Below are positions 23,834 through 64,000 of a stretch of 64,000 bases of DNA, one piece after another. The first letter of the stretch is position 1. Every line of letters starts with the position of its first letter. Source of the stretch: Eledone cirrhosa (lineage: Eukaryota); assembly GCA_964016885.1 (NCBI GenBank), contig OZ024740.1, positions 295,864,001 through 295,928,000 of the forward strand, written 5' to 3'. Below the pieces are notes generated by a model. The model saw only the letters and a list, made by a program, of their open reading frames with translations, did no database searches and had not been told where the DNA came from. The position numbers and the translations under genes were made by a program.

Positions 23834-24097
23834 TATTTCTTTTATTTGCCACTGGGGCATCAAAAGTGGGACAAGTACAAAGGGGGGAGTTTACACAAAA
23901 AGGCGTCCTCAATAAGGAGGAGGCAATAACAAAATATAAAAATAAAATAAGATATAACAAAAAATAAAATTTTTAACAAAATCCTCAATAGAGAGGTGGC
24001 GCCTTGGGGGGTCGCACACACCCCCGAAAAAAGTGTGCAACCCTTCTCCTCAGGAGCACAGAGAAGGGGTGCTCCCTTGGTCTTTCATCTTCCTCAC
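23834..24097 (-). other. Structured 264-nt 3' UTR with a terminal AATAAA and no poly(A) tail (present in all four copies)
   Basis: The sense end is ...GGCAAATAAAAGAAATA, joined directly to the target. Complementary segments: 24009-24019/24033-24043, 24041-24048/24061-24068 and 24053-24059/24069-24075. Confidence 0.7.
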
Positions 24098-27535: not shown

Positions 27536-27559
27536 GTTGGTGGTGAAGAGAAAAGGCAC

Positions 27560-39500: not shown

Positions 39501-42500
39501 TTATATAGACAGTGAGTGTAACTAAGAATATATTATATAGACAGTGAGTGTACCCGAGAATATATTATATAGACAGTGATTGTACCTAAGAATATATTAT
39601 ATAGACAGTGAGTGTACTGAGAATATATTATATAGACAGTGAGTGTACCTAAGAATATATTATATAGAAAGTGAGTGTACCAAACAATATATTAAATAGA
39701 CAGTGAGTGTACCTATGAATATATTATATAGACAGTGAGTGTACTGAGAATATATTATATAGACAGTGAATGTATCCAAGAATATATTATATAGACAGTG
39801 AGTGTACCTGAGAATATATTATATAGACAGTGAGTGTACCTAAGAATATATTATATAGATAGAGAGTGTATCCAAGAATATATTATATAGACAGTGAGTG
39901 TACCTGAAAATATATATTATATAGACAGTGAGTGTACCTAAGAATATATTATATAGACAGTGAATGTATCCAAGAATATATTATATAGATAGTGAGTGTA
40001 TCTGAGAATATATTATATAGACAGTGAGTGTACATAAGAATATATTATATAGATAGTGAGTGTATCCAAGAATATATTATATAGACAGTGAGTGTACCTA
40101 AGAATATATTATATAGACAGTGAATGTATCCAAGAATATATTATATAGATAGTGAGTGTATCTGAGAATATATTATATAGACAGTGAGTGTACAAAAGAA
40201 TATATTATATAGACAGTGAGTGTACCTAAGAATATATTATATAGATAGTGAGTGTATCTAAGAATATATTATATAGATAGTGAGTGTATCTAAGAATATA
40301 TTATTTAGACAGTGAGTGTACCTAAGAATATATTATATAGACAGTGAGTGTACCTAAGAATATATTATATAGAGAGTGAGTGTACCTAAGAATATATTAT
40401 ATAGACAGTGAGTGTACCTAAGAATATATTATATAGACAGTGAGTGTACCTAAGAATATATTATATAGACAGTGATTGTACCTAAGAATATATTATATGG
40501 ACAGTGAGTGTACCTGAAAATATATATTATATAGACAGTGAGTGTACCTAAGAATATATTATATAGAGAGTGAATGTATCCAAGAATATATTATATAGAT
40601 AGTTAGTGTATCTGAGAATATATTATATAGACAGTGAGTGTACATAAGAATATATTATATAGATAGTGAGTGTATCCAAGAATATATTATATAGACAGTG
40701 AGTGTACCTGAAAATATATATTATATAGACAGTGAGTGTACCTAAGAATATATTATATAGACAGTGAATGTATCAAAGAATATATTATATAGATAGTGAG
40801 TGTATCTGAGAATATATTATATAGACAGTGAGTGTACATAAGAATATATTATATAGATAGTGAGTGTATCCAAGAATATATTATATAGACAGTGAGTGTA
40901 CCTGAGAATATATTATATAGACAGTGAGTGTACCTAAGAATATATTATAAAGACAGTGAATGTATCCAAGAATATATTATATAGATAGTGAGTGTATCTG
41001 AGAATATATTATATAGGCAGTGAGTGTACATAAGAATATATTATATAGACAGTGAGCGTACCTACGAATATATTATATAGATAGTGAGTGTACCTGAGAA
41101 TATATTATATAGACAGTGAGTGTACCTAAGAATATATTATATAGAGTGTGAGTGTTCCTAAGAATATATTATATAGACAGTGAGTGTACTGAATATATAT
41201 TATATAGACAATGAGTGTACCTAAGAATATATTATATAGACAGTGAGTGTACCTAAGAATATATTATATAGACAGTGAGTGTACCTAAGAATATATTATA
41301 TAGACAGTGAGTGTACCTAAGAATATATTATATAGACAGTGAGTGTACCTAAGAATATATTATATAGAGTGTGAGTGTTCCTAAGAATATATTATATAGA
41401 CAGTGAGTGTACTGAATATATATTATATAGACAATGAGTGTACCTAAGAATATATTATATAGACAGTGAGTGTACCTAACAATATATTATATAGACAGTG
41501 AGTGTACCTAAGAATATATTATATAGACAGCCAGTGTACTGAATATATATTATATATACAATGAGTGTACCTAAGAATATATTATATAGACAGTGAGTGT
41601 ACCTAAGAATATATTATATAGACAGTGACTGTACCTAAGAATATATTATATAGACAGTGAGTGTTCCTAAGAATATATTATATAGACAGTGAGTGTACTG
41701 AATATATATTATATAGACAATAAGTGTACCTAAGAATATATTATATAGACAGAGAGTGTACCTAAGAATATATTATATAGATAGTGAGCGTACCTGAGAT
41801 TATATTATATAGACAGTGAGTGTACCTAAGAATATATTATATAGACAGTGAGTGTACCTAATAAAATATTATATAGAGAGTGAGTGTACCTAAGAATATA
41901 TTACATAGACAGTGAGTGTACCTGACAATATATTATATAGACAGTGATTGTACCTAACAATATATTATACAGGCACTGAATGGACCTGAGAATATATTAT
42001 CTAGACAATAAGTGTACCTAAGGATATATTATATAGAGAGTGAGTGTACTGAGAATATATTATATAGACAGTGAATGTATCCAAGAATATATTATATAGA
42101 CAGTGAGTGTACCTGAGAATATATTATATAGACAGTGAGTGTACCTAAGAATATATTATATAGATAGTGAGTGTATCCAAGAATATATTATATAGACAGT
42201 GAGTGTACCTGAAAATATATATTATATAGACAGTGAGTGTACCTAAGAATATATTATATAGACAGTGAATGTATCCAAGAATATATTATATAGATAGTGA
42301 GTGTATCTGAGAATATATTATATAGACAGTGAGTGTACATAACAATATATTATATAGATAGTGAGTGTATCCAAGAATATATTATATAGACAGTGAGTGT
42401 ACCTGAGAATATATTATATAGACAGTGAGTGTACCTAAGAATATATTATATAGACAGTGAATGTATCCAAGAATATATTATATAGATAGTGAGTGTATCT

Positions 42501-45500
42501 GAGAATATATTATATAGACAGTGAGTGTACATAAGAATATATTATATAGATAGTGAGTGTATCCAAGAATATATTATATAGACAGTGAGTGTACCTAAGA
42601 ATATATTATATAGACAGTGAGTGTACCTAAGAATATATTATATAGACAGTGAGTGTACCCGAGAATATATTATATAGACAGTGATTGTACCTAGGAATAT
42701 ATTATATAGACAGTGAGTGTACCTAAGCATATATTATATAGACAGTGAGTGTACCTAAGATTATATTATATAGACAGTGAGTGTAACTAAGAATATATTA
42801 TATAGACAGTGAGTGTACCCGAGAATATATTATATAGACAGTGATTGTACCTAAGAATATATTATATAGACAGTGAGTGTACCTAACAATATATTATATA
42901 GACAGTGAGTTTACCTAAGAATATATTATATAGAAAGTGATTGTACCAAACAATATATTAAATAGACAGTGAGTGTACCTATGAATATATTATATAGACA
43001 GTGAGTGTACTGTGAATATATTATATAGACAGTGAATGTATCCAAGAATATATTATATAGACAGTGAGTGTACCTGAGAATATATTATATAGACAGTGAG
43101 TGTACCTAAGAATATATTATATAGATAGTGAGTGTATCCAAGAATATATTATATAGACAGTGAGTGTACCTGAAAATATATATTATATAGACAGTGAGTG
43201 TACCTAAGCATATATTATATAGACAGTGAGTGTTCCTAAGAATATATTATATAGACAGTGAGTGTACTGAATATATATTATATAGACAATGAGTGTACCT
43301 AAGAATATATTATATAGACAGAGAATGTACCTAAGAATATATTATATAGATAGTGAGCGTACCTGAGATTATATTATATAGACAGTGAGTGTACCTAAGA
43401 ATATATTACATAGACAGTGAGTGTATCTGACAATATATTATATAGATAGTGAGTGTACCTACGAATATATTATATAGACAGTGAGTGTAACTAATAATAT
43501 ATTATATAGACAGTGATTGTACCTAAGAATATATTATATAGGCACTGAATGGACCTGAGAATATATTATCTAGACAATAAGTGTACCTAAGGATATATTA
43601 TATAGAGAGTGAGTGTACTGAGAATATATTATATAGACAGTGAATGTATCCAAGAATATATTATATAGACAGTGAGTGTACCTGAGAATATATTATATAG
43701 ACAGTGAGTGTACCTAAGAATATATTATATAGATAGTGAGTGTATCCAAGAATATATTATATAGACAGTGAGTGTACCTGAAAATATATATTATATAGAC
43801 AGTGAGTGTACCTAAGAATATATTATATAGACAGTGAATGTATCCAAGAATATATTATATAGATAGTGAGTGTATCTGAGAATATATTATATAGACAGTG
43901 AGTGTACATAAGAATATATTATATAGATAGTGAGTGTATCCAACAATATATTATATAGACAGTGAGTGTACCTGAGAATATATTATATAGACAGTGAGTG
44001 TACCTAAGAATATATTATATAGACAGTGAATGTATCCAAGAATATATTATATAGATAGTGAGTGTATCTCAGAATATATTATATAGACAGTGAGTGTACA
44101 TAAGAATATATTATATAGACAGTGAGTGTACCTAAGAATATATTATATAGATAGTGAGTGTATCTAAGAATATATTAAATAATTAGTGAGTGTATCTAAG
44201 AATATATTATATAGACAGTGAGTGTACCTAAGAATATATTATATAGACAGTGAGTGTACCTAAGAATATATTATATAGACAGTGAATGTATCCAAGAATA
44301 TCTTATATAGATAGTGAGTGTATCTGAGAATATATTATATAGGCAGTGAGTGTACATAAGAATATATTATATAGACAGTGAGCGTACCTACGAATATATT
44401 ATATAGATAGTGAGTGTACCTGAGAATATATTATATAGACAGTGAGTGTACCTAAGAATATATTATATAGAGTGTGAGTGTTCCTAAGAATATATTATAT
44501 AGACAGTGAGTGTACTGAATATATATTATATAGACAATGAGTGTACCTAAGAATATATTATATAGACAGTGAGTGTACCTAAGAATATATTATATAGACA
44601 GTGAGTGTACCTAAGAATATATTATATAGACAGTGAGTGTACCTAAGAATATATTATATAGACAGTGAGTGTACCTAAGAATATATTATATAGAGTGTGA
44701 GTGTTCCTAAGAATATATTATATAGACAGTGAGTGTACTGAATATATATTATATAGACAATGAGTGTACCTAAGAATATATTATATAGACAGTGAGTGTA
44801 CCTAACAATATATTATATAGACAGTGAGTGTACCTAAGAATATATTATATAGACAGCCAGTGTACTGAATATATATTATATATACAATGAGTGTACCTAA
44901 GAATATATTATATAGACAGTGAGTGTACTGAATATATATTATATAGACAATAAGTGTACCTAAGAATATATTATATAGACAGAGAGTGTACCTAAGAATA
45001 TATTATATAGATAGTGAGCGTACCTGAGATTATATTATATAGACAGTGAGTGTACATAAGAATATATTATATAGATAGTGAGTGTATCCAAGAATATATT
45101 ATATAGACAGTGAGTGTACCTGAAAATATATATTATATAGACAGTGAGTGTACCTAAGAATATATTATATAGACAGTGAATGTATCAAAGAATATATTAT
45201 ATAGATAGTGAGTGTATCTGAGAATATATTATATAGACAGTGAGTGTACATAAGAATATATTATATAGATAGTGAGTGTATCCAAGAATATATTATATAG
45301 ACAGTGAGTGTACCTGAGAATATATTATATAGACAGTGAGTGTACCTAAGAATATATTATATAGACAGTGAATGTATCCAAGAATATATTATATAGATAG
45401 TGAGTGTCTCTGAGAATATATTATATAGGCAGTGAGTGTACATAAGAATATATTATATAGACAGTGAGCGTACCTACGAATATATTATATAGATAGTGAG

Positions 45501-48500
45501 TGTACCTGAGAATATATTATATAGACAGTGAGTGTACCTAAGAATATATTATATAGAGTGTGAGTGTTCCTAAGAATATATTATATAGACAGTGAGTGTA
45601 CTGAATATATATTATATAGACAATGAGTGTACCTAAGAATATATTATATAGACAGTGAGTGTACCTAAGAATATATTATATAGACAGTGAGTGTACCTAA
45701 GAATATATTATATAGACAGTGAGTGTACCTAAGAATATATTATATAGACAGTGAGTGTACCTAAGAATATATTATATAGAGTGTGAGTGTTCCTAAGAAT
45801 ATATTATATAGACAGTGAGTGTACTGAATATATATTATATAGACAATGAGTGTACCTAAGAATATATTATATAGACAGTGAGTGTACCTAACAATATATT
45901 ATATAGACAGTGAGTGTACCTAAGAATATATTATATAGACAGCCAGTGTACTGAATATATATTATATATACAATGAGTGTACCTAAGAATATATTATATA
46001 GACAGTGAGTGTACCTAAGAATATATTATATAGACAGTGACTGTACCTAAGAATATATTATATAGACAGTGAGTGTTCCTAAGAATATATTATATAGACA
46101 GTGAGTGTACTGAATATATATTATATAGACAATAAGTGTACCTAAGAATATATTATATAGACAGAGAGTGTACCTAAGAATATATTATATAGATAGTGAG
46201 CGTACCTGAGATTATATTATATAGACAGTGAGTGTACCTAAGAATATATTATATAGACAGTGAGTGTACCTAATAAAATATTATATAGAGAGTGAGTGTA
46301 CCTAAGAATATATTACATAGACAGTGAGTGTACCTGACAATATATTATATAGACAGTGATTGTACCTAACAATATATTATACAGGCACTGAATGGACCTG
46401 AGAATATATTATCTAGACAATAAGTGTACCTAAGGATATATTATATAGAGAGTGAGTGTACTGAGAATATATTATATAGACAGTGAATGTATCCAAGAAT
46501 ATATTATATAGACAGTGAGTGTACCTGAGAATATATTATATAGACAGTGAGTGTACCTAAGAATATATTATATAGATAGTGAGTGTATCCAAGAATATAT
46601 TATATAGACAGTGAGTGTACCTGAAAATATATATTATATAGACAGTGAGTGTACCTAAGAATATATTATATAGACAGTGAATGTATCCAAGAATATATTA
46701 TATAGATAGTGAGTGTATCTGAGAATATATTATATAGACAGTGAGTGTACATAACAATATATTATATAGATAGTGAGTGTATCCAAGAATATATTATATA
46801 GACAGTGAGTGTACCTGAGAATATATTATATAGACAGTGAGTGTACCTAAGAATATATTATATAGACAGTGAATGTATCCAAGAATATATTATATAGATA
46901 GTGAGTGTATCTGAGAATATATTATATAGACAGTGAGTGTACATAAGAATATATTATATAGATAGTGAGTGTATCCAAGAATATATTATATAGACAGTGA
47001 GTGTACCTAAGAATATATTATATAGACAGTGAGTGTACCTAAGAATATATTATATAGACAGTGAGTGTACCCGAGAATATATTATATAGACAGTGATTGT
47101 ACCTAGGAATATATTATATAGACAGTGAGTGTACCTAAGCATATATTATATAGACAGTGAGTGTACCTAAGATTATATTATATAGACAGTGAGTGTAACT
47201 AAGAATATATTATATAGACAGTGAGTGTACCCGAGAATATATTATATAGACAGTGATTGTACCTAAGAATATATTATATAGACAGTGAGTGTACCTAACA
47301 ATATATTATATAGACAGTGAGTTTACCTAAGAATATATTATATAGAAAGTGATTGTACCAAACAATATATTAAATAGACAGTGAGTGTACCTATGAATAT
47401 ATTATATAGACAGTGAGTGTACTGTGAATATATTATATAGACAGTGAATGTATCCAAGAATATATTATATAGACAGTGAGTGTACCTGAGAATATATTAT
47501 ATAGACAGTGAGTGTACCTAAGAATATATTATATAGATAGTGAGTGTATCCAAGAATATATTATATAGACAGTGAGTGTACCTGAAAATATATATTATAT
47601 AGACAGTGAGTGTACCTAAGCATATATTATATAGACAGTGAGTGTTCCTAAGAATATATTATATAGACAGTGAGTGTACTGAATATATATTATATAGACA
47701 ATGAGTGTACCTAAGAATATATTATATAGACAGAGAATGTACCTAAGAATATATTATATAGATAGTGAGCGTACCTGAGATTATATTATATAGACAGTGA
47801 GTGTACCTAAGAATATATTACATAGACAGTGAGTGTATCTGACAATATATTATATAGATAGTGAGTGTACCTACGAATATATTATATAGACAGTGAGTGT
47901 AACTAATAATATATTATATAGACAGTGATTGTACCTAAGAATATATTATATAGGCACTGAATGGACCTGAGAATATATTATCTAGACAATAAGTGTACCT
48001 AAGGATATATTATATAGAGAGTGAGTGTACTGAGAATATATTATATAGACAGTGAATGTATCCAAGAATATATTATATAGACAGTGAGTGTACCTGAGAA
48101 TATATTATATAGACAGTGAGTGTACCTAAGAATATATTATATAGATAGTGAGTGTATCCAAGAATATATTATATAGACAGTGAGTGTACCTGAAAATATA
48201 TATTATATAGACAGTGAGTGTACCTAAGAATATATTATATAGACAGTGAATGTATCCAAGAATATATTATATAGATAGTGAGTGTATCTGAGAATATATG
48301 ATATAGACAGTGAGTGTACATAAGAATATATTATATAGATAGTGAGTGTATCCAACAATATATTATATAGACAGTGAGTGTACCTGAGAATATATTATAT
48401 AGACAGTGAGTGTACCTAAGAATATATTATATAGACAGTGAATGTATCCAAGAATATATTATATAGATAGTGAGTGTATCTCAGAATATATTATATAGAC

Positions 48501-51500
48501 AGTGAGTGTACATAAGAATATATTATAAAGACAGTGAGTGTACCTAAGAATATATTATATAGATAGTGAGTGTATCTAAGAATATATTAAATAATTAGTG
48601 AGTGTATCTAAGAATATATTATATAGACAGTGAGTGTACCTAAGAATATATTATATAGACAGTGAGTGTACCTAAGAATATATTATATAGACAGTGAATG
48701 TATCCAAGAATATCTTATATAGATAGTGAGTGTATCTGAGAATATATTATATAGGCAGTGAGTGTACATAAGAATATATTATATAGACAGTGAGCGTACC
48801 TACGAATATATTATATAGATAGTGAGTGTACCTGAGAATATATTATATAGACAGTGAGTGTACCTAAGAATATATTATATAGAGTGTGAGTGTTCCTAAG
48901 AATATATTATATAGACAGTGAGTGTACTGAATATATATTATATAGACAATGAGTGTACCTAAGAATATATTATATAGACAGTGAGTGTACCTAAGAATAT
49001 ATTATATAGACAGTGAGTGTACCTAAGAATATATTATATAGACAGTGAGTGTACCTAAGAATATATTATATAGACAGTGAGTGTACCTAAGAATATATTA
49101 TATAGAGTGTGAGTGTTCCTAAGAATATATTATATAGACAGTGAGTGTACTGAATATATATTATATAGACAATGAGTGTACCTAAGAATATATTATATAG
49201 ACAGTGAGTGTACCTAACAATATATTATATAGACAGTGAGTGTACCTAAGAATATATTATATAGACAGCCAGTGTACTGAATATATATTATATATACAAT
49301 GAGTGTACCTAAGAATATATTATATAGACAGTGAGTGTACTGAATATATATTATATAGACAATAAGTGTACCTAAGAATATATTATATAGACAGAGAGTG
49401 TACCTAAGAATATATTATATAGATAGTGAGCGTACCTGAGATTATATTATATAGACAGTGAGTGTACCTAAGAATATATTATATAGACAGTGAGTGTACC
49501 TAATAAAATATTATATAGAGAGTGAGTGTACCTAAGAATATATTACATAGACAGTGAGTGTACCTGACAATATATTATATAGATAGTGAGTGTACCTAAG
49601 AATATATTATATAGACAGTGAGTGTAACTAATAATATATTATATAGACAGTGATTGTACCTAAGAATATATTATATAGGCACTGAATGGACCTGAGAATA
49701 TATTATCTAGACAATAAGTGTACCTAAGGATATATTATATAGAGAGTGAGTGTACTGAGAATATATTTTATAGACAGTGAATGTATCCAAGAATATATTA
49801 TATAGACAGTGAGTGTACCTGAGAATATATTATATAGACAGTGAGTGTACCTAAGAATATATTATATAGATAGTGAGTGTATCCAAGAATATATTATATA
49901 GACAGTGAGTGTACCTGAAAATATATATTATATAGACAGTGAGTGTACCTAAGAATATATTTTGTAGACAGTGAATGTATCCAAGAATATATTATATAGA
50001 TAGTGAGTGTATCTGAGAATATATTATATAGACAGTGAGTGTACATAAGAATATATTATATAGATAGTGAGTGTATCCAAGAATATATTATATAGACAGT
50101 GAGTGTACCTGAGAATATATTATATAGACAGAGAGTGTACCTAAGAATATATTATATAGACAGTGAATGTATCCAAGAATAGATTATATAGATAGTGAGT
50201 GTATCTGAGAATATATTATATAGACAGTGAGTGTACATAAGAATATATTATATAGACAGTGAGTGTACCTAAGAATATATTATATAGATAGTGAGTGTAT
50301 CTAAGAATATATTATATAGATAGTGAGTGTATCTAAGAATATATTATATAGACAGTGAGTGTACCTAAGAATATATTATATAGACAGTGAGTGTACCTAA
50401 GAATATATTATATAGACAGTGAGTGTACCTAAGAATATATTATATAGACAGTGAGTGTACCTAGGAAAATATTATATAGATAGTGAGTGTACCTAAGCAT
50501 ATATTATATAGACAGTGAGTGTACCTAAGATTATATTATATAGACAGTGAGTGTAACTAAGAATATATTATATAGACAGTGAGTGTACCCGAGAATATAT
50601 TATATAGACAGTGATTGTACCTAAGAATATATTATATAGACAGTGAGTGTACCTAACAATATATTATATAGACAGTGAGTGTACCTAAGAATATATTATA
50701 TAGAAAGTGAGTGTACCAAACAATATATTAAATAGACAGTGAGTGTACCTATGAATATATTATATAGACAGTGAGTGTACTGAGAATATATTATATAGAC
50801 AGTGAATGTATCCAAGAATATATTATATTGACAGTGAGTGTACCTGAGAATATATTATATAGACAGTGAGTGTACCTAAGAATATATTATATAGATAGTG
50901 AGTGTATCCAAGAATATATTATATAGACAGTGAGTGTACCTGAAAATATATATTATATAGACAGTGAGTGTACCTAAGAATATATTATATAGACAGTGAA
51001 TGTATCCAAGAATATATTATATAGATAGTGAGTGTATCTGAGAATATATTATATAGACAGTGAGTGTACATAAGAATATATTATATAGATAGTGAGTGTA
51101 TCCAAGAATATATTATATAGACAGTGAGTGTACCTGAGAATATATTATATAGACAGTGAGTGTACCTAAGAATATATTATATAGACAGTGAATGTATCCA
51201 AGAATATATTATATAGATAGTGAGTGTATCTGAGAATATATTATATAGACAGTGAGTGTACATAAGAATATATTATATAGACAGTGAGTGTACCTAAGAA
51301 TATATTATATAGATAGTGAGTGTATCTAAGAATATATTATATAGATAGTGAGTGTATCTAAGAATATATTATATAGACAGTGAGTGTACCTAAGAATATA
51401 TTATATAGACAGTGAGTGTACCTAAGAATATATTATATAGAGAGTGAGTGTACCTAAGAATATATTATATAGACAGTGAGTGTACCTAAGAATATATTAT

Positions 51501-53112
51501 ATAGACAGTGAGTGTACCTAAGAATATATTATATAGACAGTGATTGTACCTAAGAATATATTATATGGACAGTGAGTGTACATGAAAATATATATTATAT
51601 AGACAGTGAGTGTACCTAAGAATATATTATATAGACAGTGAATGTATCCAAGAATATATTATATAGATAGTGAGTGTATCTGAGAATATATTATATAGAC
51701 AGTGAGTGTACATAAGAATATATTATATAGATAGTGAGTGTATCCAAGAATATATTATATAGACAGTGAGTGTACCTGAAAATATATATTATATAGACGG
51801 TGAGTGTACCTAAGAATATATTATATAGACAGTGAATGTATCAAAGAATATATTATATAGATAGTGAGTGTATCTGAGAATATATTATATAGACAGTGAG
51901 TGTACATAAGAATATATTATATAGATAGTGAGTGTATCCAAGAATATATTATATAGACAGTGAGTGTACCTGAGAATATATTATATAGACAGTGAGTGTA
52001 CCTAAGAATATATTATATAGACAGTGAATGTATCCAAGAATATATTATATAGATAGTGAGCGTATCTGAGAATATATTATATAGGCAGTGAGTGTACATA
52101 AGAATATATTATATAGACATTGAGTTTTCCCTTAGAATATATTATATAGACAGTGAGTGTACCTAAGAATATATTATATAGACAGTGAGTGTACCTAAGA
52201 ATATATTATATAGACAGTGAGTGTTCCTAAGAATATATTATATAGACAGTGAGTGTACTGAATATATATTATATAGACAATAAGTGTACCTAAGAATATA
52301 TTATATAGACAGAGAGTGTACCTAAGAATATGTTATATAGATAGTGAGCGTACCTGAGATTATATTATATAGACAGTGAGTGTACCTAAGAATATATTAT
52401 ATAGACAGTGAGTGTACCTAATAAAATATTATATAGAGAGTGAGTGTACCTAAGAATATATTACATAGACAGTGAGTGTACCTGACAATATATTATATAG
52501 ATAGTGAGTGTACCTAAGAATATATTATATAGACAGTGAGTGTAACTAATAATATATTATATAGACAGTGATTGTACCTAAGAATATATTATATAGGCAC
52601 TGAATGGACCTGAGAATATATTATCTAGACAATAAGTGTACCTAAGGATATATTATATAGAGAGTGAGTGTACTGAGAATATATTATATAGACAGTGAAT
52701 GTATCCAAGAATATATTATATAGACAGTGAGTGTACCTAAGAATATATTATATAGACAGTGAGTGTACCTAAGAATATATTATATAGATAGTGAGTGTAT
52801 CCAAGAATATATTATATAGACAGTGAGTGTACCTGAAAATATATATTATATAGACAGTGAGTGTACCTAAGAATATATTATATAGACAGTGAATGTATCC
52901 AAGAATATATTATATAGATAGTGAGTGTATCTGAGAATATATTATATAGACAGTGAGTGTACATAAGAATATATTATATAGATAGTGAGTGTATCCAAGA
53001 ATATATTATATAGACAGTGAGTGTACCTGAGAATATATTATATAGACAGTGAGTGTACCTAAGAATATATTATATAGACAGTGAATGTATCCAAGAATAT
53101 ATTATATAGATA
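36586..53112. repeat. 32-bp satellite, segment 3
   Basis: Same monomer and orientation, between copies 2 and 3. Confidence 0.97.
40630..49455. repeat. Tandem block duplication, period 4412 bp
   Basis: Rare variants recur at offset 4412: (TATAC)AGGCAC 41971/46383, TGTGAATA 43011/47423, AATTAG 44181/48593, GTATCAAAG 40770/45182. Boundaries are approximate. Confidence 0.88.
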
Positions 53113-53376
53113 TATTTCTTTTATTTGCCACTAGGGCATCAAAAGTGGGACAAGTACAAAGGGGGGAGTTTACACAAAAAGGCGTCCTCAATAAGGAGAA
53201 GGCAATAACAAAATATAAAAATAAAATAAGATATAACAAAAAATAAAATTTTTAACAAAATCCTCAATAGAGAGGAGGCGCCTTGGGGGGTCGCACACAC
53301 CCCCGAAAAAAGTGTGCAACCCTTCTCCTCAGGAGCACAGAGAAGGGGTGCTCCCTTGGTCTTTTATCTTCCTCAC

Positions 53377-56300
53377 CTATAGTCTGATGTAGAGTGAAGG
53401 CCCATTCACACGGGCCATTCTCGCCACTTTCACCCATCTTTCATAGAAACGGCTGGGGTGCAGCACCTCTCTCTCCATCCTGATCCTTCTTCCGAAATGA
53501 TATCGGAAGAAACGGACCAGTTGTTGGCCAGAGAGAAAGGTGCCCGACCTCAGTCCTTTCAGACGCGTCCACCATACAACCTCTTTCGCCATGGCTATTA
53601 CGCACAGAAACACCGCCTCTGCTTCATCTTTGAAGGGGGGAGGCGGCTTGATCATTACAATCGACTCGGTGGTCAACCGGATCGGTCCCACCCTTGACAG
53701 CAGTTGTTCGACATAGCCCCACAGATCGGCTACGCCCGAGCAGTGTACTAATGCGTGTGCAACGGTTTCCTCGTCGCACACGCATCTGGGACAGATCTTT
53801 TTGGCGGGGTCCCTACCCGGGCGCCCGTGTCTGTAGAGCCTTTCTCGAACGGGTAAAGCCCCTCGGTAGCACTGCCAGGCCAGGGACTTCTGGAAGTTGT
53901 CCATAGGTCCCGGGCTGAATGTCCTACCGAACAGGCTGGCCAGTTCGTCCTCCTCCATGTCTAGGGCTTCTCCGAGGGCGTCGTCGCACCTGCTGCGTAC
54001 CAGCCCTCTATAGAATGTTGCGGTGGAGTCTCCACTGATAACCGGATCCGCCTGCCAGAGGGCGGTGAGCGCCTGGGCACACTCAGTGTGCCAGGCGCCC
54101 AGTTTTCTCGGTCTTTGCTTGACCCAGGATTGCAGCTCGGTGAGTGAGACGAGTTTGGGAAAGGTTCGTCTCACAAACGAGGCCCACACCGGTTGTCCGG
54201 TGAGGAATACGTAGAGGTGCCGTAGCCTTAATGCGTGTTTACGCATCATTAGCCACGGCATCCCCAGCCCTCCTTTCGAAGGGTGTTGACAGCAGATGGA
54301 TCTCCTCACCATAGGAGCCCGCCTCTTCCAAAGGAATTGGAAGAGCGCGCGCTCCATCTTGGTGAGGGTTTCCCTTGGGCAGGGCACTACGGTCAGGCGG
54401 TAGTAGATGACGGACGCTATGTAGGTGTTCGCCACCTCCGCCCGACCTTTCAGGGATAGTTTGCAACTGGCCCACTTCTGGGTCAGTGCAAACACCCTGT
54501 TCGTAACCTCCGCCCAGTTTTTCTCCACCTGGAGGTCCGGTCCGAACCAGACCCCGAGCAACTTCACCGGGCCCTCCGTCCAGCGTCCGACGACGCTATC
54601 GGAGGGCATCGGTCTGCCCCTCCACGTGCCGAGTTGCAAACCGATCGACTTGTCCCGGTTCAGCTTAGCCCCTGTGAACTTTTCGTACTCCTCCAGTAAG
54701 GTGCCGACCGCCTCGATTTCGGAGGCCGTCGACACCATTACTGTCACGTCATCGGCGTAGGCCGACACCGCTTTCCGCAATCCCGGTTCCAAAGGGATGC
54801 CCTGCAACAACTCCAACTTCCGCAGTAGTGGCTCGAGAGTCAACACATACAGAAGGGAGGAGAGAGGGCACCCTTGTCGGATGGACCGCGCGATTTTGAA
54901 CGGCTCCGAGAGGTAGCCGTTCACCTTGACCCTAGAGCAGATGCGGCTGCTGTGCATAGCAGTGATCCAGCCCCTGAAAACGGGTCCGAAGCCTGCCGCC
55001 GCTAGCACCGCATCCAGGTAACCATGGTCGACCCTATCGAACGCCTTAGATTGATCCAAGTTGATCAGAGCCCCACCAAAGCCGGGTTCGTTCCCAACCC
55101 TCTCTATGATGTATCGCATGAGGTGGAGGTTGTCATGGATGGACCTGGACGGGATAGCGCATGTCTGCGCATCTCCCACCAGGTTGCCCACGACAAGCGC
55201 CAACCTCTTTGCTAGCACCTTGGCCAAAATCTGTAACTCTGTATTTAGCAGTGTTATGGGCCTGAAGTTACTTATTTCGTCCCCCTTGTTCTCGTCCTTC
55301 CTCACTAGCGTGACTACGCCCTTGGTCACAGTACAGGGAATTCTCCCGTTCTGTTGCCAGTTGCAGTAGACCGCCTCGAGGAGATCGGGGAACAAGTCCG
55401 GCATAGCTAGATATAATTCGTAAGGAAGACCATCGAGACCCGGGGATTTGCGTTTGCCGCATTGGCTCAGCACGTCCTCTATCTCAGCGGCCGAAATCGG
55501 CTCCTCGCAGGACTTCGCCTCCCTGTCCGAGAGGCGCGGCAGGCCGTCGAGGTATGGACCGAAGTCCACGTTCCCAACCGGCTCCCCGCCCCTCCCGAAC
55601 AGTCGGGCAAAGTGCCTTTGAAAGGCCTCACACATCTGCTTAGGCTCAAGAATCGCCCGTCCATCCAGGTCTTGCAAAGACCGGATGGTGGATTTAGTTC
55701 CACTGTTGGCCTCTGTCACGCGGGCCCAGCTAACAGCTTTGGTCCCCTCGTTCCCTAGAGCACGTATTTTACTTCGGACAACGCAGCCTTCGTGCTTCGC
55801 GTCGAAAAACTGGCTCAACGCCGTTCTCGACGCTAGCACTCTGGCCACGTCGCCGCTTCTAATTGCCTCTTCTACTCTATCTATTAGCTCCCTTTCCTTC
55901 CTATTCCTATCCGCAGCTAGAACCTTACTAAATTCTATCGAGACTACTCTAATCTCTCTCTTTAGAGATACCCACCACCTGCTGTTGACGATCGCTCCAG
56001 TCAACCGTTCCTTAACTAACGTACTAATCCGATTCCTGTAGGCTCTACTTGCCGGCAAGGACAAGTTGAGCTTCCAGTAACCGGGGCCCTGTCTATGAGT
56101 TCTGTCAAGGTTGACCATGCAGGTCACTAATTTGTGGTCTGAATAGCCAACAATGCGCATTTTTGGACAACTTAAAAAGTCCTTATCCTTAATTCTAACT
56201 AAGAACCTATCTAGGTACGACCTAGATGATCCGCTACGATTTGCCCAAGTCCAGGTTGGCGCAGTCGGAAAATCTAGTCGATATCTATCGGCCAGGTCAA

Positions 56301-56814
56301 ATCGACCGATTAACCCTTTGAGGCTATTACACCCCTCTCTATCGGGGCAGGCCCCTACGTAGTCCCAGCGTGCATCTAGGATACCATTCCAGTCCCCCAC
56401 TAATAGCAAGGAGCGGGACGTCCCTAGAAAAGTCTCCAGACGATGGAAGAAGTCCGGCCGCATTGACCCGAAAGGGCCGTAGGCGGCTACCAACCTAAAC
56501 GCTCCGCCTTTACCACTGCCAAGGTCCAGAACCACTAGTCGACCCTCCGGGTCCAAATGTACCATCTGTGTTGCGAGACCCAGATGTTTTTGCAGCAGAA
56601 CGACAACTCCACCCCCACCTCCGGGCTGACAGAGAGATGCGTGCATCTCAAAGTCATCAAAGGTGGGGGCCAGCTGTCGCACGTTGCTGATCCGGGCCTC
56701 GCAAATAACCATCACATCTATACGTTGTGACCTGAGGTCATTTAGAAGCATTGCTTGCTTCCAAGTTGAGCCCAGGCCACGCGCATTTAAACAGCCTACT
56801 CTTAGCATAGCCAT
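53377..56814 (-). CDS. ORF2 pol protein (APE, RT, zinc finger), intact
   Basis: Same motifs as copy 1 with only two amino-acid differences seen (SLRD/SLQD, FPRL/FPKL). The frame is open from 56838; the first ATG is at 56814. Confidence 0.96.
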   Translation of the reverse strand: MAMLRVGCLNARGLGSTWKQAMLLNDLRSQRIDVMVICEARISNVRQLAPTFDDFEMHASLCQPGGGGGVVVLLQKHLGLATQMVHLDPEGRLVVLDLGSGKGGAFRLVAAYGPFGSMRPDFFHRLETFLGTSRSLLLVGDWNGILDARWDYVGACPDREGCNSLKGLIGRFDLADRYRLDFPTAPTWTWANRSGSSRSYLDRFLVRIKDKDFLSCPKMRIVGYSDHKLVTCMVNLDRTHRQGPGYWKLNLSLPASRAYRNRISTLVKERLTGAIVNSRWWVSLKREIRVVSIEFSKVLAADRNRKERELIDRVEEAIRSGDVARVLASRTALSQFFDAKHEGCVVRSKIRALGNEGTKAVSWARVTEANSGTKSTIRSLQDLDGRAILEPKQMCEAFQRHFARLFGRGGEPVGNVDFGPYLDGLPRLSDREAKSCEEPISAAEIEDVLSQCGKRKSPGLDGLPYELYLAMPDLFPDLLEAVYCNWQQNGRIPCTVTKGVVTLVRKDENKGDEISNFRPITLLNTELQILAKVLAKRLALVVGNLVGDAQTCAIPSRSIHDNLHLMRYIIERVGNEPGFGGALINLDQSKAFDRVDHGYLDAVLAAAGFGPVFRGWITAMHSSRICSRVKVNGYLSEPFKIARSIRQGCPLSSLLYVLTLEPLLRKLELLQGIPLEPGLRKAVSAYADDVTVMVSTASEIEAVGTLLEEYEKFTGAKLNRDKSIGLQLGTWRGRPMPSDSVVGRWTEGPVKLLGVWFGPDLQVEKNWAEVTNRVFALTQKWASCKLSLKGRAEVANTYIASVIYYRLTVVPCPRETLTKMERALFQFLWKRRAPMVRRSICCQHPSKGGLGMPWLMMRKHALRLRHLYVFLTGQPVWASFVRRTFPKLVSLTELQSWVKQRPRKLGAWHTECAQALTALWQADPVISGDSTATFYRGLVRSRCDDALGEALDMEEDELASLFGRTFSPGPMDNFQKSLAWQCYRGALPVRERLYRHGRPGRDPAKKICPRCVCDEETVAHALVHCSGVADLWGYVEQLLSRVGPIRLTTESIVMIKPPPPFKDEAEAVFLCVIAMAKEVVWWTRLKGLRSGTFLSGQQLVRFFRYHFGRRIRMEREVLHPSRFYERWVKVARMARVNGPSLYIRL

Positions 56815-56838
56815 GTTGGTGGTGAAGAGAAAAGGCAC

Positions 56839-58626
56839 TTACCTCTCTGCGTCCCGGGTATCGGGCTGCACAATTTCCATTAGGGTGGGGGATGGGTTGT
56901 TGGGTGGGGTGGTGGTTTGTGGAAGTGTGGGGGCATCAGTGTGTTGTGTGGTTGGGGAGCTTGGAGTTGTGAGGGTGTTTGGGGAGGGGGTGGGATAGTT
57001 TTTTAGGAGGACGCGGTTAATGGGCCCGACGCAGGGGGGACCCACGTCCTCTTTAAAATTGTTTTTTAAAGTTTTATAGGTGTCCTGTGGGGCCTTAATC
57101 ATTTTGAGGTGGGGGAAATCCCCTGCCTGGGTGAAGTTAGGCCCTTGTGTTTTTATTAGATTGTTGTTGTACACAATGTTTAACAGTTTTTTGTTTCTTG
57201 TATTTATGTATGTGTATGCATGTTTTTGTTTTTGTGTGGTGTTTTTTGTTTGCTGTTGTGAGCTCTTTTGTGTTGGTGTCAGTGTTATGTTTTGGGGAGG
57301 GGTTGTTTTCATTTGTGTGTCTGAGGTGTGTTTTCTTTTTTTTCTTTTGATTGTGTGGAAGTGCTCCTCCTCGTCTGACGACGAACTAGGGTCATCTTCC
57401 GCGTTGGAGGGGAGGGGTATATTTTCGGGTTGTGTTTGCGGTACGGGTGTTTTGGAAATTGTTTTTGTTTTTTGGGTGGAGGGGATGGGTTGGACATTGT
57501 TTTGTTTTGGTTTGAGCTGTGGTGGTTGTTTTTGTAGTGGTAGTTGTGGTGATTGTGTTGGTTGTGCAGTTGTTGGTGGTGTAGGCAGGATTGGGGTTTT
57601 CTTATTAAGTTGGGGACAGACAGCCCTCAGGTGACCTCTGGTTCCGCAGAGGTAACACGAGGGCCGTCTACCCTCAACGGTAATGTTGATGAAGGTTAGA
57701 TCATCCAGTATGACGCGTTCAGGGATCTGGGCGATCCTTTCGGGCCTCATTTGAACTACAAGTTCGAGGCTCGTTCCACTGAACGCGTCACCCGATGCCT
57801 TTCCCATGGACACCAGCATGTCATCCTCCAGGTCCAGAAAACCTGTCAAAACCCACCATATGTCCATAATCGGCAGGATGGTGTGGATTTTTATTTTTTG
57901 TGTTCTTCTACCCATGTACGTAGGGTAGAAGGTGTATGCGGTGGATGTGATTGGTTTGATGGACAGTTTCACTGCTGTGTCCCTGTCCTTCATGAGAATG
58001 GATAGACTCCCGTAGAGTCTATCCTTCTGAATGAAGGTGATGTCCTTCATGACGTCTTTTAAAACCAGCTCTATCTCGCTCTGTGATGGTTGAGCTGGTT
58101 TTTTACTTTTGTTCGAAATTGTCCTAAACATGACCGTGTTTAGGAGTCTCTGGCTTTTTAGTTCCGGGGGGGAATGGATTGTGAATGAACCATTTTCCCC
58201 GTACACTATATATTTTTTCGCATCCGCCAGTAGCTCCTTCGCTTTTGTTATATCTACTGGCAGATAGTCGAGGGTTTTCCTTGTCGTCTCGGCGAAGGAG
58301 AAATTTTGTTTGTTTGTGTTGTTGTTGTCGTTGGTGGTGTTGTTGTTATCATTGTTGTTGTTGTCACCGTTATTGGTCTTGTTGTTGTTATTGTTATTGT
58401 TATTGGTGTTGCTTTCGTCCGTCGCATTGTTGTTGTTGTTGCTGTTGCTGCTGGTTCTTTGGGTAGTTGCCATGGCAACGTCAAGTTGTCGGTTAACAGG
58501 TGGAGAGAATTCTTCCTCTGGCTGACCTATCTTCTTGACCTCTGCTACTGTGACAGTGGCAGGGGGAAGCTGTAAGTTCATCTTCCCCTTTCCTCCTTCG
58601 AATTTTGGTGAAGAAGCTTCGGCCAT
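56839..58626 (-). CDS. ORF1 protein, 595 aa, gag-like with one CCHC zinc knuckle
   Basis: ATG start and a poly-Asn/Thr tract. C-x2-C-x4-H-x4-C (CYLCGTRGHLRAVC) at 57616-57657, then a P/Q/T-rich linker, an acidic patch and a basic KRKKRK motif. Lies immediately upstream of ORF2, as in L1/Tx1 elements. Confidence 0.92.
   Translation of the reverse strand: MAEASSPKFEGGKGKMNLQLPPATVTVAEVKKIGQPEEEFSPPVNRQLDVAMATTQRTSSNSNNNNNATDESNTNNNNNNNNKTNNGDNNNNDNNNTTNDNNNTNKQNFSFAETTRKTLDYLPVDITKAKELLADAKKYIVYGENGSFTIHSPPELKSQRLLNTVMFRTISNKSKKPAQPSQSEIELVLKDVMKDITFIQKDRLYGSLSILMKDRDTAVKLSIKPITSTAYTFYPTYMGRRTQKIKIHTILPIMDIWWVLTGFLDLEDDMLVSMGKASGDAFSGTSLELVVQMRPERIAQIPERVILDDLTFINITVEGRRPSCYLCGTRGHLRAVCPQLNKKTPILPTPPTTAQPTQSPQLPLQKQPPQLKPKQNNVQPIPSTQKTKTISKTPVPQTQPENIPLPSNAEDDPSSSSDEEEHFHTIKRKKRKHTSDTQMKTTPPQNITLTPTQKSSQQQTKNTTQKQKHAYTYINTRNKKLLNIVYNNNLIKTQGPNFTQAGDFPHLKMIKAPQDTYKTLKNNFKEDVGPPCVGPINRVLLKNYPTPSPNTLTTPSSPTTQHTDAPTLPQTTTPPNNPSPTLMEIVQPDTRDAER
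58305..58452 (-). repeat. Imperfect (AAC/AAT)n trinucleotide tract encoding poly-Asn in ORF1
   Basis: TTG/TTA runs on the + strand; translates to ...NNNNNATDESNTNNNNNNNNK... Confidence 0.85.
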
Positions 58627-58827
58627 TTAAAAAAATATTGACTTTTCAACAAGAAAAAAAACTTTTTTTTTAACTATTTCGCCTAAAGGCGTAGAATATT
58701 TTGAGAGACTGACCAGATCAAAGTTTGACCTGGCAGTCCCTCTACAAAATGGTACAAAAATTAAAGTTATCAGACAAGAATTTCTATAGAAATTTAAACA
58801 GAACTTACTCAGCAAGTTATACGCGTG

Positions 58828-58860
58828 TGTCCATCCCAGAGATAGATAGATAGATAGATG
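58828..58860 (-). promoter_or_regulatory. Possible internal Pol II core promoter (CA start plus DPE-like GGACA at +28 to +32)
   Basis: With A at 58859 as +1, the sense strand reads GGACA (RGWYV) at 58832-58828. The motif is short and degenerate, and the initiator match is weak. Confidence 0.3.
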
Positions 58861-58864
58861 GATA
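58841..58864 (+). repeat. (GATA)n microsatellite at the 5' junction of copy 3
   Basis: GATAGATAGATAGATAGATGGATA. I saw no other tandem GATA run in the window. Confidence 0.9.
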
Positions 58865-61529
58865 TATTATATAGATAGTGAGCGTACCTGAGAATATATT
58901 ATATAGACAGTGAGTGTACCTAAGAATATATTATATAGACAGTGAGTGTACCTAATAAAATATTATATAGAGAGTGAGTGTACCTAAGAATATATTACAT
59001 AGACAGTGAGTGTACCTGACAATATATTATATAGATAGTGAGTGTACCTAAGAATATATTATATAGACAGTGACTGTACCTAATAATATATTATATAGAC
59101 AGTGATTGTACCTAAGAATATATTATATAGGCACTGAATGGACCTGAGAATATATTATCTAGACAATAAGTGTACCTAAGGATATATTATATAGAGAGTG
59201 AGTGTACTGAGAATATATTATATAGACAGTGAATGTATCCAAGAATATATTATATAGACAGTGAGTGTACCTGAGAATATATTATATAGACAGTGAGTGT
59301 ACCTAAGAATATATTATATAGATAGTGAGTGTATCTGAGAATATATTATATAGACAGTGAGTGTACATAAGAATATATTATATAGACAGTGAGTGTACCT
59401 AAGAATATATTATATAGATGGTGAGTGTATCTAAGAATATATTATATAGATAGTGAGTGTATCCAAGAATATATTATATAGACAGTGAGTGTACCTAAGA
59501 ATATATTATATAGACAGTGAGTGTACCTAAGAATATATTATATAGACAGTGAGTGTACCTAAGAATATATTATATAGACAGTGAGTGTACCTAGGAATAT
59601 ATTATATAGACAGTGAGTGTACCTAAGCATATATTATATAGACAGTGAGTGTACCTAAGATTATATTATATAGACAGTGAGTGTAACTCAGAATATATTA
59701 TATAGACAGTGAGTGTACCCGAGAATATATTATATAGACAGTGATTGTACCTAAGAATATATTATATAGACAGTGAGTGTACCTAACAATATATTATATA
59801 GACAGTGAGTGTACCTAAGAATATATTATATAGACAGTGAATGTATCAAAGAATATATTATATAGATAGTGAGTGTATCTGAGAATATATTATATAGACA
59901 GTGAGTGTACATAAGAATATATTATATAGATAGTGAGTGTATCCAGGAATATATTATATAGACAGTGAGTGTACCTGAGAATATATTATATAGACAGTGA
60001 GCGTACCTAAGAATATATTATATAGACAGTGAATGTATCCAAGAATATATTATATAGATAGTGAGTGTATCTGAGAATATATTATATAGACAGTGATTGT
60101 ACCTAAGAATATATTATATAGACAGTGAGTGTACCTAACAATATATTATATAGACAGTGAGTGTACCTAAGAATATATTATATAGAAAGTGAGTGTACCA
60201 AACAATATATTATATAGACGGTGAGTGTACCTAAGAATATATTATATAGACAGTGAGTGTACCTAACAATATATTATATAGACAGTGAGTGTACCTAAGA
60301 ATATATTATATAGACAGTGAGTGTACCTAAAATATATTATATAGAGAGTGAGTGTACCTAAGAATATATTATATAGACAGTGAGTGTACCTAAGAATATA
60401 TTATATAGACAGTGAGTGTACCTAAGAATATATTATATAGACAGTGATTGTACCTAAGAATATATTATATAGACAGTGAGTGTACCTGAAAATATATATT
60501 ATATAGACAGTGAGTGTACCTAAGAATATATTATATAGACAGTGAGTGTACCTAAGAATATATTATATAGAGTGTGAGTGTTCCTAAGAATATATTATAT
60601 AGACAGTGAGTGTACTGAATATATATCATATAGACAATGAGTGTACCTAACAATATATTATATAGACAGTGAGTGTACCTAAGAATATATTATATAGACA
60701 GCCTGTGTACTGAATATATATTATATATACAATGAGTGTACCTAAGAATATATTATATAGACAGTGAGTGTACCTAAGAATATATTATATAGACAGTGAG
60801 TGTACCTAAGAATATATTATATAGACAGTGAGTGTACCTAAGAATATATTATATAGACAGTGAGTGTTCCTAAGAATATATTATATAGACAGTGAGTGTA
60901 CTGAATATATATTATATAGACAATGAGTGTACCTAAGAATATATTATATAGACAGAGAGTGTACCTAAGAATATATTATATAGATAGTGAGCGTACCTGA
61001 GATTATATTATATAGACAGTGAGTGTACCTAAGAATATATTATATAGACAGTGAGTGTACCTAATAAAATATTATATAGAGAGTGAGTGTACCTAAGAAT
61101 ATATTACATAGACAGTGAGTGTACCTGACAATATATTATATAGATAGTGAGTGTACCTAAGAATATATTATATAGACAGTGAGTGTAACTAATAATATAT
61201 TATATTGACAGTGATTGTACCTAAGAATATATTATATAGGCACTGAATGGACCTGAGAATATATTATCTAGACAATAAGTGTACCTAAGGATATATTATA
61301 TAGAGAGTGAGTGTACTGAGAATATATTATATAGACAGTGAATGTATCCAAGAATATATTATATAGACAGTGAGTGTACCTGAGAATATATTATATAGAC
61401 AGTGAGTGTACCTAAGAATATATTATATAGACAGTGAATGTATCCAAGAATATATTATATAGATAGTGAGTGTATCTGAGAATATATTATATAGACAGTG
61501 AGTGTACATAAGAATATATTATATAGATA
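58862..61529. repeat. 32-bp satellite, segment 4
   Basis: Same monomer and orientation, between copies 3 and 4. Confidence 0.97.
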
Positions 61530-61940
61530 TGTTTCTTTTATTTGCCACTAGGGCATCAAAAGTGGGACAAGTACAAAGGGGGGAGTTTACACAAAAAGGC
61601 GTCCTCAATAAGGAGGAGGCAATAACAAAATATAAAAATAAAATAAGATATAACAAAAAATAAAATTTTTAACAAAATCCTCAATAGAGAGGAGGCGCCT
61701 TGGGGGGTCGCACACACCCCCGAAAAAAGTGTGCAACCCTTCTCCTCAGGAGCACAGAGAAGGGGTGCTCCCTTGGTCTTTCATCTTCCTCACCTATAGT
61801 CTGATGTAGAGTGAAGGCCCATTCACACGGGCCATTCTCGCCACTTTCACCCATCTTTCATAGAAACGGCTGGGGTGCAGCACCTCTCTCTCCATCCTGA
61901 TCCTTCTTCCGAAATGATATCGGAAGAAACGGACCAGTTG
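61530..61940 (-). mobile_element. Tx1-like retrotransposon, copy 4, severely 5'-truncated (411 bp)
   Basis: 3' UTR plus the last ~48 codons of ORF2 (61794-61940). 7-bp TSD ATAGATA at 61523-61529 and 61941-61947. Confidence 0.95.
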
Positions 61941-64000
61941 ATAGATAGTGAGTGTATCCAAGAATATATTATATAGACAGTGAGTGTACCTGAGAATATA
62001 TTATATAGACAGTGAGTGTACCTAAGAATATATTATATAGACAGTGAATGTATCCAAGAATATATTATATAGACAGTGAGTGTACATAAGAATATATTAT
62101 ATAGACAGTGAGTGTACCTAAGAATATATTATATAGATAGTGAGTGTATCTAAGAATATATTATATAGATAGTGAGTGTATCTAAGAATATATTATATAG
62201 ACAGTGAGTGTACCTAAGAATATATTATATAGACAGTGAGTGTACCTAAGAATATATTATATAGACAGTGAGTGTACCTAAGAATATATTATATATACAG
62301 TGAGTGTACCTAGGAATATATTATATAGACAGTGAGTGTACCTAAGCATATATTATATAGACAGTGAGTGTACCTAAGATTATATTATATAGACAGTGAG
62401 TGTAACTAAGAATATATTATATAGACAGTGAGTGTACCCGAGAATATATTATATAGACAGTGATTGTACCTAAGAATATATTATATAGACAGTGAGTGTA
62501 CCTAACAATATATTATATAGACAGTGAGTGTACCTAAGAATATATTATATAGAAAGTCAGTGTACCAAACAAAATATTAAATAGACAGTGAGTGTACCTA
62601 TGAATATATTATATAGACAGTCAGTGTACTGAGAATATATTATATAGACAGTGAGTGTACCTAAGAATATATTATATAGATAGTGAGTGTATCTAAGAAT
62701 ATATTATATAGATAGTGAGTGTATCTAAGAATATATTATATAGACAGTGAGTGTACCTAAGAATATATTATATAGACAGTGAGTGTACCTAAGAATATAT
62801 TATATAGACAGTGATTGTACCTAAGAATATATTATATAGACAGTGAGTGTACCTGAAAATATATATTATATAGACAGTGAGTGTACCTAAGAATATATTA
62901 TATAGACAGTGAATGTATCCAAGAATATATTATATAGATAGTGAGTGTATCTGAGAATATATTATATAGACAGTGAGTGTACATAAGAATATATTATATA
63001 GATAGTGAGTGTATCCAAGAATATATTATATAGACAGTGAGTGTACCTGAAAATATATATTATATAGACAGTGAGTGTACCTAAGAATATATTATATAGA
63101 CAGTGAATGTATCAAAGAATATATTATATAGATAGTGAGTGTACCTGAGAATATATTATATAGACAGTAAGTGTACCTAAGAATATATTATATAGACAGG
63201 GAATGTATCCAAGAATATATTATATAGATAGTGAGTGTATCTGAGAATATATTATATAGACAGTGAGTGTACATAAGAATATATTATATAGACAGTGAGC
63301 GTACCTACGAATATATTATATAGATAGTGAGTGTACCTGAGAATATATTATATAGACAGTGAGTGTACCTAAGAATATATTATATAGAGTGTGAGTGTTC
63401 CTAAGAATATATTATATAGACAGTGAGTGTACTGAATATATATTATATAGACAATGAGTGTACCTAAGAATATATTATATAGACAGTGAGTGTACCTAAG
63501 AATATATTATATAGACAGTGAGTGTACCTAAGAATATATTATATAGACAGTGAGTGTACCTAAGAATATATTATATAGACAGTGAGTGTACCTAAGAATA
63601 TATTATATAGACAGTGAGTGTACCTAAGAATATATTATATAGAGTGTGAGTGTTCCTAAGAATATATTATATAGACAGTGAGTGTTCTGAATATATATTA
63701 TATAGACAATGAGTGTACCTAAGAATATATTATATAGACAGTGAGTGTACCTGACAATATATTATATAGACAGTGAGTGTACCTAAGAATATATTATATA
63801 GACAGTGAGTGTACCTAAGAATATATTATATAGACAGTGAGTGTTCCTAAGAATATATTATATAGACAGTGAGTGTACTGAATATATATTATATAGACAA
63901 TGAGTGTACCTAAGAATATATTATATAGACAGAGAGTGTACGTAAGAATATATTATATAGATAGTGAGCGTACCTGAGATTATATTATATAGACAGTGAG
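61941..64000. repeat. 32-bp satellite, segment 5 (runs off the right window edge)
   Basis: Same monomer and orientation, after copy 4. Confidence 0.97.

Follow-up and report, generated by a model that had tools for sequence, protein, structure and literature searches.

The element whose 5' end abuts a GATA tract in the window (the whole stretch of 64,000 nucleotides that was analysed) is a LINE found mostly in (GATA)n arrays, and the tract (58844-58861) together with 463 bp of satellite was probably copied from a sister insertion, L066, where the tract would in turn be a leader brought from the GATA array of a donor. The window (1..64000, forward strand) is filled by a satellite with a 32-bp monomer and higher-order variants, inside which lie four co-oriented insertions of this one element. 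The array is more than 264 kb long, and the 690 variant monomers found genome-wide were all on the same strand, those among the 100 matches listed clustering together. The satellite seems to be confined to a single genomic locus.

The full-length copy (53113..58843, reverse strand; 5,731 bp) is an L1/Tx1-type non-LTR retrotransposon without a poly(A) tail. ORF1 (56839..58626, reverse strand; 595 aa) contains a possible, weak CCHC zinc knuckle (zf-CCHC at residues 323-339, E 0.05, below the Pfam cut-off). ORF2 (53377..56814, reverse strand; 1,145 aa from the first ATG) contains an AP-type endonuclease, a reverse transcriptase and a C-terminal zinc-binding region; its Pfam matches above the cut-off were Exo_endo_phos (23-227) and RVT_1 (512-755), and its best solved match, only distantly similar, was human L1 ORF2p (residues 8-856, E 5e-48), the value for R2 being 1e-19. 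The predicted ORF2, with an N-terminal AP-type endonuclease and a reverse transcriptase, assigns the element to the L1 group, and two ORFs, 5' truncation and target-site duplications, which are traits of this group, are present. The Tx1 label is our assumption from the zinc-knuckle ORF1, the absence of a poly(A) tail and the target preference; a CCHC zinc knuckle in ORF1 is common in Tx1. The other three window copies, all on the reverse strand and without the GATA tract, comprise two 5'-truncated copies (23834..29022, of the L066 sub-lineage, with a 17-nt duplication that carries a private variant on both sides; and 33930..36585, with a 13-nt duplication) and a short 3' fragment (61530..61940, with a 7-nt duplication). 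Duplications thus range from 7 to 17 nt at the truncated window copies, and from 9 to 23 nt at other copies.

A 26-nt pattern taken within the 5' end of the element, with the tract excluded, had 372 exact matches in the genome, and three GATA units followed it directly in 145 of them. Altogether 159 copies were examined, 60 of which had been chosen by their 5' letters; the unselected set consisted of 99 copies, i.e. the 100 matches listed of the 372 minus one nested in another copy. In this set (GATA)3 lay no more than 45 nt from the 5' end in 86 of the 99 copies. Among the 92 unselected copies with an intact far end, (GATA)3 was present at the 3' side in 67 and on at least one side in 84, arrays flanked both sides in 62, and the 3' joint ended in TAGATA in 82 and in the reverse word in none. 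A control repeat family had (GATA)3 within 300 bp at 0 of 20 loci. Genome-wide, 1,926 3' ends were found with a 31-nt pattern and about 1,284 adjoining GATAGATA with a slightly shorter one, a ratio of about two-thirds that is approximate, as the two patterns differ by 6 nt. The same repeat therefore stands at the flanks in a single orientation and register, in far more than the 20% of flanks that the accessible part of PMC4494074 gives as the rule for target-specific LINEs. Both ends of the element bear out the proposal of the first-pass annotation that the GATA microsatellite is the primary target, and copies embedded in such arrays, which it had expected, are found in quantity.

Copies are inserted behind TA(G/T)ATA; most of these sites lie in GATA arrays, some in (TA)n and a few at a TAGATA monomer of the satellite. 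TA(G/T)ATA is presumably the word that the endonuclease recognises. Pure (TA)n adjoined 8 of the first 30 3' joints, as counted by eye, so that (TA)n outranks the satellite as a secondary target; together with the one third or so of 3' ends that lack GATAGATA, this indicates a loose specificity. A GATA tail on the 3' end of the RNA was also considered and rejected: units had been added at none of the five satellite joints, and the eight joints mentioned above consist of pure (TA)n.

Other features of these arrays were observed. Two copies of an older subfamily, L033 and L034 (18-19 Mb on the contig of the window), lie in (GGTA)n and not in (GATA)n arrays, possibly through target drift or later array turnover. 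In 31 of the 159 copies the GATA run gives way to the 3' end of another, related family, of which there are several variants (e.g. L054, L058, L061 and L195), which points to a guild of sister LINEs stacking in shared arrays. Another abundant repeat (3,260 matches; L263-L282), possibly a (TA)n-seeking LINE, has a fixed end that adjoins (TA)n in most of 20 loci.

The satellite proved to be a secondary target, as the first-pass annotation had suggested, and a rare one: most copies lie elsewhere, with 5 satellite 3' joints against about 1,926 3' ends in the genome, and specificity for the satellite was not found. All five insertions occurred at TAGATA monomers, which account for 726 of 6,506 monomer boundaries (11%; p ~2e-5), and none at TAGACA monomers, although these are 7 times commoner. 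The satellite hence offers a natural test of a one-letter change in the target. The five insertions are confined to about 95 kb (295.83-295.93 Mb) in an array that exceeds 300 kb. Some 28 kb beyond the window the array is interrupted by a 3.5-kb non-satellite island (L113:7950 to L114:1465), which opens with an inverted repeat several hundred bases long. Two further copies, L045 and L199, are inserted in two other satellites with a monomer of about 48 bp; TAGATAGA is present in the monomer at L199 and absent from that at L045.

The GATA tract of the window copy, GATAGATAGATAGATAGATGG, occupies 58841-58861. At least three consecutive GATA units occur at just two places in 264 kb of array, the window junction and an identical junction 83 kb upstream, both of them insertion junctions; the tract is thus real and foreign to the satellite, as had been noted. 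Its length as extra flank has to be corrected. Extra letters are indeed present, but the first GAT (58841-58843) belongs to the family's modal 5' terminus (58830..58843, reverse strand), whose last letters, GAT on the forward strand, are in register with a GATA array. This leaves 18 nt instead of the approximately 20 nt first proposed: four AGAT units (58844..58859, forward strand), identical at L066, and a GG at the joint (58860..58861, forward strand). As 58830-58835 and 58857-58862 are reverse complements of each other, the GG may come from snap-back copying, the alternative being untemplated addition. A pre-existing GATA scar in the satellite, hit by both copies, was rejected, since no tract-bearing empty site exists in the 264 kb.

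Copies at foreign or broken targets end at CCCAGAGAT, a base other than A coming next in 11 matches, and in 57 of the 99 unselected copies the terminus runs directly into GATA. Whether units are added beyond it can be read where the duplication contains non-repeat letters. By a fixed rule such junctions were resolved in 15 of 143 intact copies (mismatched-pair control, 3.2 ± 1.7), a set that leaves out the window copy and two tandem copies. No full extra unit was present at 8 of the 15, and therefore four units are not a fixed terminus; at the remaining 7, one to four units stood between terminus and duplication, so that extra units do recur beyond the window copy, the point on which the first-pass annotation had proposed to compare 5' ends. 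Five of these 7 were scored as unseeded by the duplication (against 0.9 in the control; p 0.006 for at least 4), including L234, which the script scored as unseeded and which is partly seeded; the duplications of L066, L087, L190 and L250 begin without the repeat, and later slippage there had no seed. These counts are small and come partly from copies chosen for at least three GATA units (4 of 11 in the unselected set), one case lies on a 9-nt duplication and two may be later slippage. Within pure arrays, register was lost 7-23 nt from the start of the run at 6 of 68 5' joints but at just 1 of the 92 3' joints (p 0.04). A short variable GATA leader thus likely recurs at 5' joints, and it likely derives from a transcription start inside the array of the donor. 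The rare insertions at foreign targets would reveal this putative leader, which is invisible within GATA arrays.

The extra units of L066 might instead have been made at the joint, by a jump to GATA DNA or RNA or by slippage on TAGATAG, the RNA having no leader while the target and the capture from L066 stay the same. We regard this as possible but unlikely. Non-repeat extras at other 5' joints (a palindrome at L037, and L041, L048 and L165) indicate that the cDNA end is promiscuous, joints of the 'snap-back' and 'extra template' kind are described for R2 in the available sections of PMC11331408, and the donor flank is untraced among the 159 copies. Against it, a leaderless RNA would hold no second AUC for slippage, slippage on the satellite target would require several cycles on a 7-nt word, and most extras keep register with the terminus. 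We favour a leader carried by the RNA, because nearly every donor has an in-register array upstream and a leaderless RNA gives no slippage template.

The terminal extras lie inside duplications and are pure repeat, which names no donor. No GATA-array donor carrying the window junction was found genome-wide, the junction being present at two satellite copies only. Similarly, among the 159 copies no non-repeat donor flank was common to sister copies, besides the pair formed by the window copy and L066 and two apparent duplications. A short variant of the terminus was clearly inherited in a single clade comprising four to five copies, but the signal over all copies was weak (5 of 13, p 0.07). Two other candidates were discarded. 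A base derived from the cap does not explain the joints, as the commonest letter after the GAT end on the cDNA strand was G (12 of 19) and not the C expected from a copied cap. The 33-nt insert at L237 is the end of the 3,260-match repeat adjoining (TA)n, and is more likely a separate insertion than a transduced flank. In addition, L033 and L035, 1.4 Mb apart and of different subfamilies, have in common a GACA-variant start of the 5' run that is unique in the genome. It was not accepted as proof of transduction, since the two copies come from different subfamilies and their bodies show no switch close to the 5' end; it is perhaps a second case of neighbours sharing a junction.

Full-length copies join the satellite at two places only, the window copy and L066, 83 kb away, and the two junctions are identical. 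The bodies differ at 23 sites, the last diagnostic one being 58668 (T in the window copy). From 53199 to 58668 the window copy has the haplotype of L062 and L085, both in GATA arrays, from which its body differs by 2 and 3 changes, respectively, whereas L066 groups with L036, L071, L088 and the truncated copy at 23834. L066 has the tract, the GG and a clean 16-nt duplication, and its flanks rebuild the empty satellite site, mismatching it at 3 positions in 768 bp. The naive join of the window copy gave 36 mismatches in 768, reduced to 8 in 768 when the right flank was taken from 59325; compared with the empty site over 512 bp, the left flank plus the sequence from 59325 had 3 mismatches and the naive join 16, this boundary being the best of 67. 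From 58878, 458 bp are identical to the L066 flank, after which the two diverge.

The block identical to the 5' flank of L066 spans 58862..59324 (forward strand; 463 bp) and consists of the 16-nt duplication followed by 14 monomers (447 bp). Other satellite blocks come within 2-4 mismatches of the 447-bp part, a point against the copying. At the 3' end of the element lies the left copy of the window insertion's duplication (53093..53112, forward strand; 20 nt), which ends in the TAGATA monomer variant. The 20 nt at 59305..59324 (forward strand) match it and are probably the right copy, with the original target resuming at 59325; the 16 nt at 58862-58877, considered as the window copy's own target-site duplication, belong to L066. 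The best reading of this arrangement is that 58844-59324 would be the leader, duplication and 14 monomers of L066, placed between the 5' UTR of the window copy and its own target. Because the junction and about 460 bp of flank match L066 while the bodies are of different sub-lineages, tract and satellite were likely copied from this neighbour. The source named by the 463-bp block is a copy of another sub-lineage than the window copy, and no GATA-array copy has the same junction; the proposal that the tract of the window copy came straight from a GATA-array donor has accordingly been abandoned. The window copy has no private changes relative to L062 and L085, and L066 is 6 from its nearest relative, which fits the proposed order of events. 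The copying, a single event in one assembly, may have occurred either during insertion (by cDNA strand invasion or by switching to a read-through L066 transcript) or afterwards, through gene conversion.

An assembly mosaic, in which the shared junction merges two copies or haplotypes of the repetitive array, appears improbable. The joint is known from the assembly alone and satellite arrays are difficult to assemble, but a mosaic would take two switches, with the second falling precisely at the return to the original target, the 264 kb contain zero N, and the results on target and leader would be unaffected. Less probable still is the direct route, with the window copy coming from a GATA-array donor with about 20 nt of flank, 58862-58877 as its duplication and L066 as a duplicate or coincidence. 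The nearest bodies do sit in GATA arrays and 16 nt match on both sides; nevertheless, the empty site is rebuilt by the flanks of L066 and not by the naive join, the two bodies are of different sub-lineages over their whole length, and it is improbable that an identical 18-nt extra arose twice independently at one monomer variant. Equally remote is the idea that the units belong to the element or that GATA arrays grew from element ends after insertion at random sites: many copies run from the terminus directly into GATA, but the 8 resolved junctions without a full extra unit exclude the intrinsic terminus of four units that had been raised as an alternative, 11 copies have GAT followed by another base, truncated copies also adjoin GATA at the 3' end, arrays on both sides are frequent (62/92), and no units were added at the 3' joint of any of the five satellite insertions.

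The favoured reading, capture from L066 with a leader from the donor's array, can be put as a sequence of events. Insertion occurs after TA(G/T)ATA, presumably through recognition of the word by the endonuclease. Transcription would begin in an upstream unit of the host array, at the equivalent base, giving an RNA that carries a few target units; these would vanish seamlessly in GATA arrays and become visible at foreign targets only. The tract of L066 would have come as such a short leader from the GATA array of its donor, with a putative short 5' transduction as the preferred route. The cDNA end of the window copy, or a later break near its 5' end, would then have paired with L066 at some point in the final 175 bp of the 5' UTR, and copying through the L066 junction and 14 monomers would have ended by rejoining its own target via 20 nt of monomer homology. 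More tentatively, and with less confidence than in the capture itself, the RNA of the family may start in the host GATA array so that the piece of target serves as a handle for 5' joining; in the satellite the handle would be unmatched, and the cDNA would finish on a neighbour and move 14 monomers over 83 kb. If this were true, LINE insertion would be a direct cause of higher-order reshuffling of the satellite.

Microsatellite targeting by Tx1 elements is already known, and insertion in (GATA)n is a variant of this habit. The accessible parts of PMC4494074 and PMC3812793 describe the families Kibi, in (TC)n, and Koshi, in (TTC)n, and crocodilian elements in (TTCC)n/(TTTC)n. Like them, the present element is an AP-endonuclease LINE that inserts in a microsatellite, and it passes the above rule of more than 20% by a wide margin; it is set apart by its target, (GATA)n/(TATC)n, with (TA)n and the satellite monomer as secondary ones. 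No GATA-targeting Tx1 was found in the literature searched, whose scope excluded Repbase and subscription papers, and nothing relevant to satellite transduction by LINEs was found among the literature matches listed. The part consulted of an octopus repeat annotation reports 13 recently active L1-Tx1 families and does not give their target (PMC13282606). (GATA)n joins the targets of microsatellite-seeking LINEs, with genome-wide counts instead of single loci.

In R2, as far as the available text of PMC11331408 goes, upstream target sequence on the RNA anneals for 5' joining, snap-back and extra-template joints being minor classes. A few upstream target letters on the RNA would likewise let the cDNA end of the present element anneal and give seamless joints. 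The R2 leader, in the same text, is fixed, derived from a ribozyme-cut rRNA co-transcript, and R2 has a restriction-like endonuclease; here the putative leader is variable (0-4 units) and the endonuclease is of the AP type. Complex insertions of human L1 include template switching, chimeras and templated genomic insertions (PMC11702581, in the portion available), and a new insertion of the present family may similarly finish its 5' end on a second template, carrying copied genomic DNA. Unlike in human L1, the second template would be a sister insertion located in the same array, and 14 satellite monomers would make up the copied DNA. The borrowed junction provides a worked case of satellite DNA duplication at a LINE insertion; it also cautions that apparent duplications within satellites are open to misreading.

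Both long frames were intact in 56 of 146 copies, from which the family is judged to be active, and the 5'-end joining of such elements becomes testable in an active family. When 57 copies were aligned (window 53450-56200), 15-35 sites per 400 bp separated the old from the young subfamilies over much of ORF2. In ORF1 and the 5' UTR, several old copies were just 1-8 sites per 400 bp from the young subfamily, a contrast that suggests a recombinant origin of one subfamily. Three full-length copies, L017-L019 (L225, L226), lie head-to-tail with identical spacers, which is likely the result of tandem amplification.
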